Assembly (NCBI GenBank): GCA_964594155.1
Contig: CAZQLH010000001.1
Coordinates: forward strand, 74,132-138,131
From: an uncultured Candidatus Saccharibacteria bacterium
GTDB taxonomy: Bacteria; Patescibacteriota; Minisyncoccia; Portnoybacterales; UBA2143
Direction: 5' to 3'
DNA length: 64,000 nt
The position numbers and the translations under genes were made by a program. The stretch's first letter is position 1. Every line of letters starts with the position of its first letter. The notes beneath the pieces are model-generated. The model did no database searches and was not told the DNA's origin. It saw only the letters and a list, made by a program, of their open reading frames with translations. Shown in pieces: positions 12,998-18,802 of the stretch.

Positions 12998-14215
12998 ATG
13001 AAAAAAGTCAATAATAAAAATAGAAAAAAAACTTTTTACTTTTTACTTAGCTTGGTCTTATTAAGGCCATCTTTGGATATTTTTAGCCAAATAGAATTTC
13101 AAATTCATCCTAATTTGCCTATTTTTAATATTAATATTATTATTGGCGGATTAGTTTTTTTAATTTGTCTGCTATTTTTTAGTAAAAATATAAAAAATAT
13201 TTATTCTACGCCGCTTTTTTATCCTATTTTACTATTTTTAGGACTATGTTTTGCCAGTATTTTTTATTCTATTGATCCATTTAACAGTATTAGAGAATTT
13301 ATTAGAATTATTACGATTTTTCTTCTTTATTTTCTATCTTATCAATTGATTGAGAGTAAAAAAGATTTCTGGCTATTAATAAAAATTATTCTAATAAGCT
13401 ATATTTTGCCTGGTATTTTTGCCTTAATTCAGCTTATTTTTGGCTTAGGCCTGCCTGATGACTTTGGCGGATTTAAAAGAATTTACGGCACTTTTGCCCA
13501 TCCTAATCCTTTTGCTTTTTACACTTTTTTCATCTTAGGATTAGCCCTTGCTTTAACTCTGTCAAAAACACGCATTAATGTTACGTCTTGGTTTTTAATT
13601 ATTATTTTAACCTTTCTTCTTTTCTCTACTCATACTAGAAGCGCAATTGCTTGTTTTTTTATCTTTATTATTATTTTCGGGGTTTTTAAATACAGGCAAA
13701 TTCTTTTGGCTGGAATCATGATTTTCTTTTTTGCTTATTTCTTTTCTGAAATCTTTCAACAGCGCCTTTGGGAATTAATTGCTTTAGATCCATACAGTTC
13801 AGTTGTTTGGCGATTTCGCCTTTGGAAAGATATAATTCCAATTTCTATGTGGCAGCCATGGCTTGGCTATGGAACTGGAACTTTTACAAACTTAGTTGAA
13901 TTTTACAGGGGTTTTAAATGGGGCAGCTTAGAAGCGCATAATGATTATTTAAAAATATTTGTTGAAAACGGCATTTTGGGCTTAATCGCCTATTTTTGGC
14001 TTATTGCCAGCTTATTATTTTATTTGCTTAAAATATTCAAAAAAACTATTAATCAAGATAAAATTCTAACTTTGGGGATTTTAGTTATTTGTATAAGCTT
14101 ATTTGCCGCTAGTTTTTTTGACAATATTCTACGCGAAACAGCCCTTCAGTGGAATCTTTGGATTCTTTTAGCTGGCTGGTTAAAAATCCAATTAAAAAAC
14201 CCTGCATCTTTTTAG
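12998..14215 (+). CDS. O-antigen ligase / polymerase-like membrane protein (Wzy_C-like)
   Basis: 405 aa with about 10 TM helices and a central extracytoplasmic loop carrying the conserved His/Arg-rich region (FAHPN, HTRS, H-N-DYL) typical of the WaaL/Wzy superfamily. Confidence 0.6.
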   Translation: MKKVNNKNRKKTFYFLLSLVLLRPSLDIFSQIEFQIHPNLPIFNINIIIGGLVFLICLLFFSKNIKNIYSTPLFYPILLFLGLCFASIFYSIDPFNSIREFIRIITIFLLYFLSYQLIESKKDFWLLIKIILISYILPGIFALIQLIFGLGLPDDFGGFKRIYGTFAHPNPFAFYTFFILGLALALTLSKTRINVTSWFLIIILTFLLFSTHTRSAIACFFIFIIIFGVFKYRQILLAGIMIFFFAYFFSEIFQQRLWELIALDPYSSVVWRFRLWKDIIPISMWQPWLGYGTGTFTNLVEFYRGFKWGSLEAHNDYLKIFVENGILGLIAYFWLIASLLFYLLKIFKKTINQDKILTLGILVICISLFAASFFDNILRETALQWNLWILLAGWLKIQLKNPASF

Positions 14216-14237
14216 ATACAGGGTCTTTTTGTTTTTT
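14200..14237 (+). terminator. Rho-independent terminator overlapping the stop of the Wzy-like gene, bidirectional in form
   Basis: Hairpin ccctgcatct-tttt-agatacaggg (one mismatch) is followed by tctttttgtttttt. An A-run precedes it, so it can also terminate minus-strand transcription. Confidence 0.65.
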
Positions 14238-14264
14238 AATCCCTCCTAACTATCATTATTATCT

Positions 14265-14391
14265 CGGGCGGCAATGCCTATCCCTTGAAAATGACAAAGT
14301 CCTTTAGATGATAATATAATAATCTATTCTCTTCCTAAATAGCAATGCTTGTTTAGGAAAGAATTTGCGAATAAATAGCAATGCTTGTTTA
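14265..14391 (-). promoter_or_regulatory. Orphan copy of the leader/operator motif set shared with 18009-18050 (GGCAATGCC palindrome plus two AATAGCAATGCTTGTTTA direct repeats)
   Basis: cgggcggcaatgcctatccc (14265-14284) is about 90% identical to cggacggcaatgcctatcca at 18009-18028. A 19-bp direct repeat aaatagcaatgcttgttta occurs at 14337-14355 and 14373-14391, and tagcaatgctt recurs at 18036-18045. Confidence 0.5.
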
Positions 14392-14414
14392 TTCTGAAAG
14401 TTTGTTGAGAGATT

Positions 14415-15029
14415 TTATTCAGCCAATTCTGGATGCCGGCCTTGTTTTAATTTTCCCAGGCCAAGCGATTTCAGAGGAATCGTGGGCTTATTTGGATACA
14501 TTACCAAGCCAATGGCTAATGTGTCCATAACAACTGCCCCAAGATCCATTTCATAAATAATCCATTTATTTTTTGGATCAAGAAGGAAAAATCCAACATC
14601 ATTGTCTGCTGATTCAGCATATCCCCAAATATGCTCCACAACCGGCTCTTTAACGCCTTTGGCATAATTGGGCAAACTGAATTCAGCTCTGCCTTTTTTT
14701 ACAACAATGTCCGCAAAATAAAAATTTCTTTTGCCAGCCGCATGAAGGATGCCAGAAGCCAGTTTAATTCTGACAGCTGATTTTACCTTTTTTTTCATTG
14801 ACGCCATTGCCGGATTAAGAATAGTAACATGAACTCTGTCGCCTATATCCTTAACCTTAATTGAAAACTTGGCCATTGGCGCCATATCAGCTGTTGGCGC
14901 AGTAAGCTTGCTGTCTTTCATTAAAGCGCGAATCTCATCAGCGGTTTCTGGATGCTTCATCTGTTCTGCGCTGACAAAAACGGGAAATAACCAGAAAATC
15001 GCCAACACTATGAATAATGTTCTTTTCAC
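14415..15029 (-). CDS. Secreted hypothetical protein (signal peptide)
   Basis: N-terminal MKRTLFIVLAIFWLFPVFVSAEQ (signal peptide with AxA-like cleavage region). The rest is hydrophilic with no known motif. The gene reads GC-richer than its surroundings. Confidence 0.45.
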   Translation of the reverse strand: MKRTLFIVLAIFWLFPVFVSAEQMKHPETADEIRALMKDSKLTAPTADMAPMAKFSIKVKDIGDRVHVTILNPAMASMKKKVKSAVRIKLASGILHAAGKRNFYFADIVVKKGRAEFSLPNYAKGVKEPVVEHIWGYAESADNDVGFFLLDPKNKWIIYEMDLGAVVMDTLAIGLVMYPNKPTIPLKSLGLGKLKQGRHPELAE

Positions 15030-15035
15030 TCTACA

Positions 15036-16616
15036 TCACCTCCTTTTTTTTAATTTCTGTTTTAAAATATTCCAGATTTCCTGTTCTGCTTTTTCTGTGT
15101 CAATAACTGAAATCGGGATACTTCTTTTACTCTTGCTAAAAATTTGATGATAAAGATTATACAAGCTAATCTCGCCGTAAAGACCAGTAGAACTTGTATT
15201 TCCTTTGCTACTCTTCCAATCTGTATAACCAGCGCCTATTTTAAAAGAACCATTAAAACATGACAGGCCGATTTTGCCTCCGGTTCCCAATTTGCTGTTT
15301 TCAGCATAATAGGTTCCGCGGGTCTCGCTCCAAACCTGTAAATCTTTGCCAATGATATCAAAGACATCAGCATAAACCGCCAGATTATAAGCGCCTTTAT
15401 TGTCTGGTTCTCCATTTAACGGCTGTTGTCCGTTCCATTGATCAGTCCAATAATCGTTTTTCTGATGATTTATGTCTATTTCCACTTCACCAGAAACACG
15501 AATCTTGGAAAACCATTTTTCATTAGCCCGTCCATTGTATTCAGCAGAAGAATAGAAATTCATAATATCTGTTTTCTGCTCCACGCTGTACTGGCCAAAC
15601 TGATTATTCAGATAACCCTGATCCTTGCGCTGGCCTAAGCCAGCCCTGCCAAGAACTTCCCAATTTCTTTTCTGGTCGCGGAAACGCCCGGCTATAGCCC
15701 AGATATCCGCATCGCCTTTGTAATGAAACGGATTGCTTTCTCCGGTTTCGCCTGACCAATTTCTGGCCGTGTAATTCAACCCAAATGCCCATTCATTTCC
15801 GTCATAATCATCAAAAACAACCGGGTAAAGAGTTGACGACTGCCACCAGCCACTTACATTATTGCCGTCTTTATAGCTTTCGCTATATCCGCCCCAAGTT
15901 GAATCCCAGTCCCATTTATGTTTTTTAACTTTTGCTGGAATTTCCAACCTATCTGCTAAAAAGAATGGAAATGGCGGCGGTATTGGGGGTATTGGCGGAG
16001 GCAAAAGTAAAGCTATTTTTTTCTTTTGCTTGATTGCCCAATTTCCGCAATAAATCGGATACCAAAGCTCGCGGCCGTTATCAAGCTGATAAACCCGGGC
16101 TGCTTGTTTTTTGCCTTTCCAATCAACAACAACATTTCTCCAGATATGAAATTTCTTTCCGAAAAGCATTTTCACAAACTCATCTTTTTCCTTGATAATA
16201 TCCCAGCGAAATCCTTTTTGGGATTTTTCCAAGGCATCCATATGAATGGAAATGACTTTCTCGGTTTGCTCTATGGTTAATCCAAGAGTTCTTAATCCCT
16301 GAATGTCCCGAAGCAGTTGCTTTTCAGAATCAGCTGGAAATCTTTTAAAAGGATTTCTATTGAAATCTTTCCAAATTGATTTAGCATTAATATCCAGAAG
16401 ATCGCTTAAATGAATCTTCTGATTAGGAAAAATAGAATTCCTTTTTCTTGCCTCTGTCCTGACTTTTGCCCAAGGAATATGAAAAACCTTGATAGCGATT
16501 TTATAAATACTATCGCCTTTCTTTACCGTGTAAACCCTGTCATCTGATTGAAAAGCAGAGGCAGAATTTACAATGGCAAAGAATACAATTATTGTTAAGA
16601 GTATTCTTTTTATCAT
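15036..16616 (-). CDS. Secreted LysM-domain protein with Pro-rich linker and Gly/aromatic-rich C-terminal domain
   Basis: Signal peptide MIKRILLTIIVFFAIVNSASA. LysM-like segment YTVKKGDSIYKIAIKVF...IHLSDLLDI. PPPIPPIPPPFPFF linker. The C-terminal 300 aa are rich in W/Y/G/N with alternating-pattern stretches (beta-rich, barrel- or wall-binding-like). Confidence 0.5.
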   Translation of the reverse strand: MIKRILLTIIVFFAIVNSASAFQSDDRVYTVKKGDSIYKIAIKVFHIPWAKVRTEARKRNSIFPNQKIHLSDLLDINAKSIWKDFNRNPFKRFPADSEKQLLRDIQGLRTLGLTIEQTEKVISIHMDALEKSQKGFRWDIIKEKDEFVKMLFGKKFHIWRNVVVDWKGKKQAARVYQLDNGRELWYPIYCGNWAIKQKKKIALLLPPPIPPIPPPFPFFLADRLEIPAKVKKHKWDWDSTWGGYSESYKDGNNVSGWWQSSTLYPVVFDDYDGNEWAFGLNYTARNWSGETGESNPFHYKGDADIWAIAGRFRDQKRNWEVLGRAGLGQRKDQGYLNNQFGQYSVEQKTDIMNFYSSAEYNGRANEKWFSKIRVSGEVEIDINHQKNDYWTDQWNGQQPLNGEPDNKGAYNLAVYADVFDIIGKDLQVWSETRGTYYAENSKLGTGGKIGLSCFNGSFKIGAGYTDWKSSKGNTSSTGLYGEISLYNLYHQIFSKSKRSIPISVIDTEKAEQEIWNILKQKLKKRR

Positions 16617-16632
16617 AATTCTGCCCCTTTTT

Positions 16633-17469
16633 TTAATCTTGCTTCATGCGCAATTGCAGCCATTCTTTATAATCGCGTTCGTACTGTTCTTTTTTTTGTT
16701 GATAATCCTGCATTTCTTTATTCCACTTATTAAATCCGAGCTTTTCAAGAGTCAAGCCAAGCTGAAATCTATCCACTAAGGCTGTGTCGTAATACGGCAG
16801 GTATAAATCAGCTTTTTGGACAATCGCTTGAACAAGCGACCAAATCCTAACGCCGAAAATGCCGAATAAAGAAGAAAAATCAGTTGCCCCGGCCAAAATT
16901 ATATCATCTGTGGTAATTTTGGCTACCTGGGACATAACCCGGTCAAAAAGGCCTGGAATTTTCTGATTGTCTAAGCCTTTTCCGATATTAATTAAAATAG
17001 TTTGTATTTGCTTATCCTGTTCAGAATCTAATTTAATATTTTCCCAAATCTCAATCCCGGTTTCGCCCAATAACTTAATCTTAGACCAATCTAATTTTGG
17101 AACTAAATAGCCATTTTTGGAAAAGATATTTTTTCCATCAACAGTATAAAAGTTCCTGCCGCTTCGTGAAGAAATAATGCATTTTTGATTAGAAAGATCT
17201 GCTTCAGCTATTATTAATAACCGATTTTTAACCCTGACGCCAGAAAATGATTTCTTGTTATCTAATGGTTGTTCCAAAAATAAATTATGGCGTACCCCTG
17301 ATCCTTCTGATAAAAAAAGAACAGGATGTATTTCCAACCAATAGACATTATAAGATAGAAAAGCTTGTTCTTCTATCTTATTTATATCTTTTTCCGGCAT
17401 TATGAATTGCCGATTAGCGCAGGCGCTCAAAGAAAGCGCCAGCATTAACATTATTGTTAATCTTTTCAC
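16633..17469 (-). CDS. Putative lipoprotein, hypothetical
   Basis: The N-terminus MKRLTIMLMLALSLSACANRQ has an LSAC lipobox-like motif. No further family motif. The stop overlaps the start of the upstream gene by 4 nt, which fits co-transcription. Confidence 0.45.
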   Translation of the reverse strand: MKRLTIMLMLALSLSACANRQFIMPEKDINKIEEQAFLSYNVYWLEIHPVLFLSEGSGVRHNLFLEQPLDNKKSFSGVRVKNRLLIIAEADLSNQKCIISSRSGRNFYTVDGKNIFSKNGYLVPKLDWSKIKLLGETGIEIWENIKLDSEQDKQIQTILINIGKGLDNQKIPGLFDRVMSQVAKITTDDIILAGATDFSSLFGIFGVRIWSLVQAIVQKADLYLPYYDTALVDRFQLGLTLEKLGFNKWNKEMQDYQQKKEQYERDYKEWLQLRMKQD

Positions 17470-17993
17470 ACTGTCACCTCCTTGAATGATTTTAGCTCTT
17501 CGTTTTGTTTATAGTGCAGTTTAAGATGTTTTGCCACCCTATGAGGGTTTTTATTCCTAAATTTACAAATAGGACAGCAAATCATTTCTTTTTCCATAAA
17601 GCATTTAACTTCAAATACCCTCTTATTGGCAAAACCCAATCTAATAATTTTCTGGCTTTTCTGAGTTGTTTTTATTCTTTTTCTACGTATATAGAAAAAA
17701 ACAACAATCAAGAAAAAAATAGACACAATTCCTGACATAATTTCTAAAAAAGAATTATTTGAAATAATATCTTTTTTCTTTTCAAAAACCGGAATCTTAA
17801 GGCCCTCGCCAGCAAAAATAGTGTCTTTTATAGTGCGATTATTTATTTTTGCCAGTTCATCCATTGGAATTTTATACTTTACAGCAATAATTCCCCATGT
17901 TTCTTTTGGCTGGACTACATGAATCTTGTATTCCTGCGCAAAGCCCAAAGAATAACAAAACAACGCCACAAAACAAATCAATATCTTTTTCAT
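17466..17993 (-). CDS. Single-pass membrane protein with extracytoplasmic LysM domain and cytoplasmic C2H2-type zinc finger
   Basis: The start is taken at MKKILICF (ATG 17993-17991) because GAGAGG lies 8 nt upstream; the ORF track begins 12 codons earlier. Signal peptide, then LysM YKIHVVQPKETWGIIAVKYKIPMDELAKINNRTIKDTIFAGEGLKIP, then TM helix IMSGIVSIFFLIVVFFYI + RRKR, then CPICKFRNKNPHRVAKHLKLH (C-x2-C-x12-H-x3-H). Confidence 0.5.
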   Translation of the reverse strand: MKKILICFVALFCYSLGFAQEYKIHVVQPKETWGIIAVKYKIPMDELAKINNRTIKDTIFAGEGLKIPVFEKKKDIISNNSFLEIMSGIVSIFFLIVVFFYIRRKRIKTTQKSQKIIRLGFANKRVFEVKCFMEKEMICCPICKFRNKNPHRVAKHLKLHYKQNEELKSFKEVTV

Positions 17994-18008
17994 TTCAAAC
18001 CTCTCTTT

Positions 18009-18050
18009 CGGACGGCAATGCCTATCCATTATAGTAGCAATGCTTTCTAT
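18009..18050 (-). promoter_or_regulatory. Leader/operator motifs upstream of the LysM cassette (GGCAATGCC palindrome, TAGCAATGCTT site, TATAAT -10)
   Basis: On the minus strand: AAGCATTGCTACTATAATGGATAGGCATTGCCGTCCGAAAGAGAGGTTTGAAATG. TATAAT lies at 18033-18028 and the RBS GAGAGG follows. The motifs are shared with 14265-14391. Confidence 0.5.
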
Positions 18051-18087
18051 TTAATTTTCAAGGAACTCCTCCTTAAAAACCTCCTCT

Positions 18088-18726
18088 TTAGATATAAAAA
18101 TCATTTCTATCCAAAAAGGAAGTTTCTTTTTTTAAAACCCAGATTATGCCAATTAAAAATCCTGCTAAAGCGCCTAAAATTGAACCTACCCACAGCTGAA
18201 TAACAACTGGTTTTTGACTGACTAACGGCTCATTTAAAATCTTTAATTCAACATTTTGTCCGCCGCCATGATAAAACCAATGTTCATCTGCTAATGTATT
18301 GATAATTGCCCGGCTGATTTGTTCAGCTTTTTCTTTTTGAGGATAAAAAACATCTATCTCTATTATTCCTAAATCGCGGATTATTGTTGTTTTAACTGTT
18401 TTTTGCCATTGTTTCCGTCTTTTTTTGATTTGAGGTGAAAAGCCATCTGCTTCCACTTGATAAGACGATTGCGTAACTTTTTCAAAAAAACTATCAGAAT
18501 AAATTCCTTGTTTTAAAATACGGGAAAGATATTGAGCTGATTTAGAAATACTATAAATATCCTGGCCAGATACTTGTTTTTGAACAACTAATATCTTAGA
18601 ACTGGATTTATATTGCGGTGTTTGAATAACAGCCAAATCAAAAACTAAAACAGCCCCTAAAACAGTCAGCCAAAAGATTAGCCATTTCTTTTTATAAAGC
18701 GTTTTGATTGTTTGTTTAAAAGTCAT
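18088..18726 (-). CDS. Polysaccharide chain-length determinant (Wzz/PCP-like, short form)
   Basis: 212 aa. An N-terminal TM segment is followed by VIQTPQYKSSSKILV (the PxY.S...I Wzz signature region), and a C-terminal second TM GSILGALAGFLIGIIW follows. This N- and C-terminal TM topology is typical of PCP proteins. Confidence 0.5.
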   Translation of the reverse strand: MTFKQTIKTLYKKKWLIFWLTVLGAVLVFDLAVIQTPQYKSSSKILVVQKQVSGQDIYSISKSAQYLSRILKQGIYSDSFFEKVTQSSYQVEADGFSPQIKKRRKQWQKTVKTTIIRDLGIIEIDVFYPQKEKAEQISRAIINTLADEHWFYHGGGQNVELKILNEPLVSQKPVVIQLWVGSILGALAGFLIGIIWVLKKETSFLDRNDFYI

Positions 18727-18751
18727 AAAAAAATTGCCTTATCACAGGCAA
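18727..18751 (-). terminator. Hairpin plus T-run immediately upstream of the Wzz-like start codon; likely terminator of the dnaK transcript
   Basis: Minus strand reads ttgcctgtgataaggcaa then TTTTTTT then ATG of the 18088-18726 gene. No Shine-Dalgarno sequence lies between. Confidence 0.5.
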
Positions 18752-18802
18752 TAATATTATAACCAAATTCTATCTTGTTTGTCAAATTTTGTCAAGCGAA
18801 TT

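Follow-up and report, generated by a model that had tools for sequence, protein, structure and literature searches.

A probable resident surface-protein cassette with a predicted β-barrel and putative boundary RNA hairpins in a Patescibacteria glycan locus

Our findings indicate that the four-gene cassette lying between the Wzz-like and Wzy-like genes of this glycan locus is an old, vertically inherited and fast-diverging resident, specific to Patescibacteria, and not a recently inserted island, as judged from sequence comparison with its relatives. The best explanation of the observations as one whole, and one that we hold to be reasonably probable, is a resident envelope module that would comprise the barrel of one protein (C3), its partner proteins and an RNA hairpin motif.

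Results

Gene content of the cassette and its flanks

The window analyzed here is a 64,000-nt stretch of DNA, in which four minus-strand genes, C1 to C4, form the cassette; the gap between the Wzz-like and Wzy-like genes that they occupy is termed the slot. Coordinates are from the open reading frame list with translations, and the export signals of C1-C4 were read off the translations by inspection.

12998..14215, plus strand: Wzy_C (O-antigen polymerase/ligase-like) membrane protein, Pfam Wzy_C E 6.6e-17, convergent with the cassette
14415..15029, minus strand: C4, secreted protein of 204 aa, signal peptide ...VFVSA/EQ
15036..16616, minus strand: C3, 526 aa, signal peptide ...NSASA/FQ, LysM, helical/β domain, PPPIPPIPPP linker, predicted barrel
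16633..17469, minus strand: C2, lipoprotein of 278 aa, lipobox LSLSAC, no known family (Pfam, NCBIfam, PDB)
17466..17993 (ORF to 18029), minus strand: C1, 175 aa from the MKKIL start, signal peptide, LysM, TM helix, basic cytoplasmic tail
18088..18726, minus strand: Wzz / polysaccharide co-polymerase-like gene, 212 aa, Pfam Wzz E 1.6e-8

The first-pass annotation had described four minus-strand genes for exported proteins within a surface-polysaccharide locus, and both parts of that description stand on the reading frames, translations and Pfam matches. To the left of the cassette lie GT4, DUF4012, GT4 and radical SAM genes (Pfam), and the Wzz protein also matches the CspC-family chain-length determinant of NCBIfam (E 3.7e-11, below the model cut-off). 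A Wzy-type polymerase/ligase, a Wzz-type co-polymerase and glycosyltransferases occur together, as in Wzx/Wzy-dependent O-antigen and capsule loci. The difference is that no Wzx, Wza or Wzi family was found by Pfam within +/-10 kb of the cassette: the region holds two small membrane proteins without a family, and the cassette proteins match none of the three in Pfam or NCBIfam. Capsule loci of diderm bacteria have genes for barrels and lipoproteins next to those of the Wzz/Wzc type. Integrase, recombinase and transposase families were likewise missing from the Pfam matches of called genes within +/-10 kb, as had been proposed at first reading. LysM is the sole clear family in the four cassette proteins and the type B slot proteins described below (Pfam and NCBIfam scans), and PDB sequence searches with C2, C3 and C4 gave LysM-level matches at most, in keeping with the earlier view of a cell-surface module without characterized relatives.

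The slot across relatives

The gene order GrpE-Hsp20-DnaK-Wzz-[C1]-C2-C3-C4-Wzy(-)-rSAM-GT4-DUF4012-GT4-membrane protein-DnaJ, in which the glycan-assembly locus sits between grpE-hsp20-dnaK and dnaJ, recurs from GrpE to DnaJ in the relatives' loci L011-L016, L020, L025 and L028, with C3 identities of 43-81%. Relatives with as little as about 50% protein identity have the cassette at this site, and no integrase accompanies it. No close relative has an empty site: every relative whose C3 is 43-81% identical has a filled slot, and the one empty slot is that of L021, a more distant relative. Other genes occupy the slot in L026, L029 and L031. Over the more distant relatives its content spans type A modules, type B modules, other gene sets, a single gene or nothing, so that "variable surface slot" is a fair description and "recent acquisition" is not. 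Cassette and flank proteins give identical groups ({window, L015, L016}, {L011, L025}, {L013, L014, L020}, L012 and L028). Type B modules, present in the Wzz-Wzy slot of Moranbacteria and other Parcubacteria loci, are homologous to type A modules by hhalign: C3 with E 7e-60, C4 with the last gene of type B slots at E 3e-18, and C2, remotely, with a lipoprotein of ~340 aa (93.8%, E 1.8e-7). The population variants L001-L010, at least 99.99% identical, constitute a clonal sample.

These comparisons bear directly on the idea, raised in the first-pass annotation, of an acquired insert interrupting the locus. In this reading, which we regard as highly improbable, a genomic islet was recently acquired by site-specific or illegitimate recombination between wzy and wzz, leaving a 19-mer and an 11-mer as att-like or duplicated-leader scars. 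The slot that is empty in L021 and otherwise filled in L026, L029 and L031 would suit it; however, every relative to ~50% identity has the cassette at this position and has diverged congruently, its remote homologues also reside in the slot, and no recombinase lies within +/-10 kb.

Base composition

The cassette had been described as GC-richer than its flanks, and the computed values confirm this. In 500-nt windows GC reaches 0.40-0.45 at 14.5-16.2 kb versus 0.25-0.33 in the flanks, the GC-richest 1-kb bin of the entire window is 15001-16000 (GC 0.411), and the cassette GC3 values of 0.366, 0.361, 0.337 and 0.324 are the top four among the 60 window ORFs (mean 0.253, sd 0.039). A sharp rise of GC and GC3 above the flanks is a point in favor of the islet. 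Against it, the deviation of cassette tetranucleotide usage, corrected for base composition, resembles that of the window in general (r 0.91-0.94, z +0.3 to +1.3), a native signature. Moreover, slot-gene GC3 exceeds the flank mean at most of the relatives' loci compared, the exceptions being L026 (clearly below), L011 (about equal) and L018 (barely above). Since the shift appears in most lineages examined, a single recent import cannot account for it, and since it appears in nearly every relative, it points to a persistent local force. High GC3 is a long-standing property of the slot in many lineages, and we do not read it as a sign of recent import.

Expression-linked codon bias was ruled out as the cause of the raised GC3: ribosomal protein genes show no such shift (L7/L12 0.258, L10 0.251, S2 0.239, L21 0.317), and the codon shift in the cassette takes in G-ending and C-ending codons alike.

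The generality of this codon shift would also fit a recombination hot-spot, a surface-antigen slot repeatedly replaced or converted, whose composition derives from a shared gene pool or GC-biased gene conversion and not from host mutational bias. Across the clade slot GC3 lies at ~0.3-0.55 versus 0.16 to 0.49 in host flanks, with the slot below its flanks in L026, a host of higher GC, and about level with them in L011, as such a process could produce, and the variable slot content over the clade agrees with it. C4 identities are mosaic relative to C3 (between L015 and the window C4 is 46% identical and C3 75%), which shows signs of allele exchange at the sequence level and means that some horizontal replacement does occur. 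Nevertheless, C2 and C3 group the relatives as the flanks do, the tetranucleotide signature is native, and in L034, L022 and L031 slot GC3 is above 0.5 yet still above the loci's own flanks, a pattern that mere regression toward the mean of a pool would not give. We therefore consider a hot-spot unlikely as the main explanation, and retain the resident module.

Probable RNA hairpins at the cassette boundaries

A motif in the same orientation at both cassette ends had been reported and is indeed present: CGGRCGGCAATGCCTATCC has exactly two copies in the window, at 14265 and 18009 on the plus strand (none of 100 shuffles yielded two matches), and TAGCAATGCTT lies on the plus strand at 14340, 14376 and 18035. 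On the cassette strand the boundary regions form the following predicted structures.

18053..18081, minus strand: 12-bp hairpin immediately 3' of the wzz stop, GGUUUUUAAGGA-GGAGU-UCCUUGAAAAUU (fold)
18031..18050, minus strand: 5' hairpin A, two-tier, UAG / AA / AGC-AUU-GCU / A / CUA, holding 'tagcaatgctt'
18009..18028, minus strand: 5' hairpin B, GGA / UA / GGC-AUU-GCC / G / UCC, holding the boundary 19-mer
14230..14414, minus strand: structured 3'UTR of the cassette mRNA, hairpin copies enclosed by long helices
14369-14394 and 14331-14360, minus strand: hairpin A copies inside the structured 3'UTR
14266-14284, minus strand: hairpin B copy inside the structured 3'UTR

The same two-tier fold is adopted by 24 hairpin instances (consensus outer stem / WA / RGC-NUU-GCY / R / outer stem), with compensatory changes in outer and inner stems and G-U pairs on the cassette sense strand. 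The orthologue of hairpin A in L015 and L016 has the outer stem GCAG/CUGC; hairpin B, which ends 1 nt upstream of the C1 Shine-Dalgarno (SD) sequence, has orthologues in L016, L015, L013 and L028 in which the stems are altered and pairing is kept. The sequence block after the wzz stop (18053..18081) is kept in L011-L016, L020, L025 and L028. The 3'UTR folds with an MFE of -64.6 kcal/mol (z -6.1) and has a mean column identity of ~86% with L015, L016 and L097, the last being the one further locus recovered when a conserved 25-mer of the 3'UTR was scanned against the metagenome; of the 61 pairs found by RNAalifold, 4 are compensatory, and there are also G-U pairs that exist on the cassette strand only.

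Within 64 kb the motif has nine matches (shuffle mean 1.4); five of them, each on the minus strand, correspond to the boundary hairpins, and well-formed copies are restricted to the two cassette boundaries. Over this range it is neither a repeated extragenic palindrome nor the widespread promoter element that had been contemplated. Among relatives, good instances occur only in the slots of L015, L016, L028, L013 and L097, and an Rfam 15 scan of 13.5-19 kb returned three sub-threshold, chance-level matches only. The two-tier hairpin with its RGC-NUU-GCY tip appears specific to the cassette.

Two other readings were discarded. The left copy is not an SD with a remnant gene, as the SD-like AGGAGGGAUU pairs with AAUCUCUC just 3' of the C4 stop in a conserved helix, and an integron attC-like reading was dropped, there being no integrase and the copies not being one per cassette.

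The same-orientation repeats at both ends are what the islet would offer as its scars, and the left copy had been taken for a duplicated leader or att-like remnant. Instead, the repeats belong to hairpins that are present in several copies and show compensatory changes, set at the left end in a conserved structured 3'UTR, and L011, L014, L020 and L025 carry the cassette without any boundary repeats, a pattern that the first-pass annotation had itself named as refuting its proposal. The islet reading is thus largely refuted already; of the earlier claim that this was the best candidate in the window for an acquired or novel surface module, the novel surface module, distinct composition and bracketing motif stand, and the acquisition does not. 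From the pattern of base changes we infer that the boundary sequences represent a family of RNA hairpins with two tiers, located in the wzz-C1 leader and the 3'UTR, which probably set the stability or translation of the cassette mRNA segment. Small mRNA stem-loops can stabilize transcripts or bind autoregulatory proteins, and the cassette hairpins resemble operon-internal or terminal stem-loops and operator hairpins in being small, conserved and placed at both ends of an mRNA segment, one abutting a ribosome-binding site; they differ in their own two-tier architecture and in having no Rfam match.

Transcription signals

18756..18795, minus strand: sigma-70-like promoter(s) upstream of wzz, TTGACA-18-TATAAT and overlapping TTGACA-17-TAGAAT
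18733..18752, minus strand: leader hairpin then U7, directly before the wzz ATG, scored terminator-like
14194..14229, both strands: bidirectional intrinsic terminator, shared by the cassette operon (minus) and the Wzy-like gene (plus)

The two promoter sequences match the consensus at 12/12 and 11/12 positions, TTGACA...TAnAAT boxes stand at the equivalent place in L011, L013 and L014, and no minus-strand promoter of comparable quality was predicted between wzz and C1. The promoter at ~18.78 kb is the probable start of a joint wzz and cassette transcript. A TATAAT in the leader was ruled out as a cassette promoter, having no -35 box at workable spacing and not being conserved in L015 and L016. 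The hairpin TGCCTA..TAGGCA with its T-run before wzz, kept in L011, L013 and L014, would be an attenuator-like element or a 5' stabilizer. Consecutive cassette genes are separated by an overlap or gaps of 4, 16 and 6 nt, and the terminator has a 16-pair stem with a T-run on the minus strand and another on the plus strand. Most likely, the cassette is co-transcribed with wzz from the strong ~18.78 kb promoter to the terminator at ~14.2 kb.

C1 and the hairpins

C1 matches Pfam LysM (E 1.8e-7) and, weakly, zf-C2H2_9 (E 0.037), and its homologue search returned two proteins only. The C..CPxC..H..H pattern of its tail is kept in the window, L016, L015, L013, L028 and L012. Hairpins and zinc-finger C1 are both present in the window, L015, L016, L013 and L028 and both absent from L011, L014, L020 and L025, and L012 has a zinc-finger C1 variant without hairpins; about six independent lineages underlie the co-occurrence. 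On the basis of this co-occurrence, the cytoplasmic zinc-finger tail of C1 may bind the hairpins.

The co-occurrence would equally serve a reading in which the motifs are double-stranded DNA operators for a dimeric regulator controlling cassette transcription, possibly membrane-tethered C1 acting in a ToxR-like manner, since C1 combines an extracellular LysM sensor-like domain with a basic cytoplasmic zinc-finger tail and the palindromic 9-bp cores AGCATTGCT and GGCATTGCC are kept in sequence. However, the outer stems covary while their sequence changes, and on the sense strand of the cassette, but not on the other strand, a number of pairs are G-U, as suits RNA rather than a DNA duplex. In addition, three of the five motif copies lie downstream of the last gene, and no promoter is predicted beside the 5' copies. 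We judge DNA operators quite unlikely and continue to read the motif as RNA.

C3, a predicted outer-membrane-type barrel

C3 follows the order signal peptide, LysM, mixed helical/β domain, Pro-rich linker, barrel and short helical C-terminal tail. Its structure prediction, based on 19 sequences, places a 12-stranded, outer-membrane-type barrel at residues ~236-484, followed by ~40 residues predicted as low-confidence helices with no passenger; some homologues have Lys/Glu-rich C-terminal tails. The LysM match (E 6.7e-4) is just under the Pfam cut-off and is stronger in type B homologues (e.g., E 1e-20).

The domain order, with its predicted parts, resembles that of inverse autotransporters (type Ve: intimin, invasin, and ZirT with co-encoded ZirS/ZirU), and a Sec signal, identified by inspection, precedes the LysM domain at the N-terminus as in that class. 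In contrast to type Ve proteins, C3 has the ~40-residue tail in place of a passenger and no Pfam inverse-autotransporter β-domain, its Pfam scan (E <= 0.1) giving LysM and one spurious weak match. C3 also resembles the OmpA/OmpM/SlpA tethers, in which a linker connects a wall-binding domain to a membrane β-barrel within one polypeptide, the barrel being predicted in C3. Here the wall-binding domain is LysM and no OmpA_C or SLH domain was found (Pfam, NCBIfam), and 12 strands are predicted where OmpA has 8 and OmpM/SlpA 16 or more. The 12-stranded sugar-acid porins KdgM/NanC differ in lacking sequence similarity to C3 and a LysM/linker, and in their size of about 200-250 residues. The OmpM/SLH system is reported lost in CPR (bioRxiv 10.1101/2021.05.31.446380), and Patescibacteria are regarded as being without an outer membrane (PMC6744442; bioRxiv 10.1101/2021.05.31.446380). 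The predicted C3 pore is of the outer-membrane type, in bacteria believed to have no such membrane.

This single-membrane view of the phylum (PMC6744442) would be satisfied if the barrel were a modeling artefact or a non-membrane barrel, C3 a wall-bound LysM protein and the module an ordinary Gram-positive-type wall set. The depth of 19 sequences, the no more than mild hydrophobicity of the strand faces that would meet the lipid (mean Kyte-Doolittle 0 to 1.5) and the lack of a sequence match between C3 and any outer-membrane protein family (Pfam, NCBIfam, PDB) lean the same way, though we consider this account unlikely and proceed with the predicted membrane barrel.

C2 and C4

Orthologues of C2 are conserved in the relatives by alignment. 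C4, a lipoprotein in many orthologues, shows the conserved motifs PVVEHIWG and LKSLGKGKLxQGxHPEL in its alignment and is predicted to be an all-β sandwich (AlphaFold2 pLDDT 84); a fold search gave no significant match, the best (E 0.011) being CBM/Ig-like N-terminal domains of GH13 enzymes.

Discussion

A mechanism for the module can be proposed from predicted structures and analogy. C3 would be exported by Sec, its LysM domain would grip peptidoglycan, and its 12-stranded β-barrel would insert in a lipid layer as a pore or translocator. The C2 lipoprotein and the C4 β-sandwich would act as partner or cargo of C3 at the cell surface, possibly handling the glycan that the flanking genes assemble. 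The two-tier hairpins would set the stability or translation of the cassette mRNA segment, with the zinc-finger tail of C1 perhaps binding them. A more ambitious joint reading, which we offer tentatively and as rather doubtful in its full extent, is that widespread Patescibacteria carry a LysM-anchored 12-stranded barrel with partners in a glycan locus, serving either an outer lipid layer with type Ve-like secretion or tethering, or as a barrel inserted in the host-cell envelope as an attachment or uptake pore; that a LysM-zinc-finger protein tethered to the membrane reads a new hairpin motif and thereby controls the cassette mRNA; and that the raised GC3 reflects selection on that mRNA.

The cell envelope has a central part in the way the tiny CPR epibionts attach to their hosts and feed on them, and it also matters for the debated question of how many times bacteria have lost an outer membrane; current genomic surveys of CPR report no outer-membrane components. 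With C3 there is a concrete protein to localize: its barrel, which is conserved, of outer-membrane type and predicted with confidence, is fused to a domain that binds the wall, and its module adjoins glycan-assembly genes in several Patescibacteria lineages. The compact covarying RNA hairpin motif, paired with a membrane-tethered zinc-finger protein, is a side result that can be reused, and a resident gene block that keeps raised GC3 over deep divergence is a caution against equating a GC shift with recent transfer. If the type Ve-like reading is true, supposedly single-membrane bacteria would have an outer lipid layer; if host insertion is true, the exported barrel would be an attachment or uptake pore in the host cell envelope.

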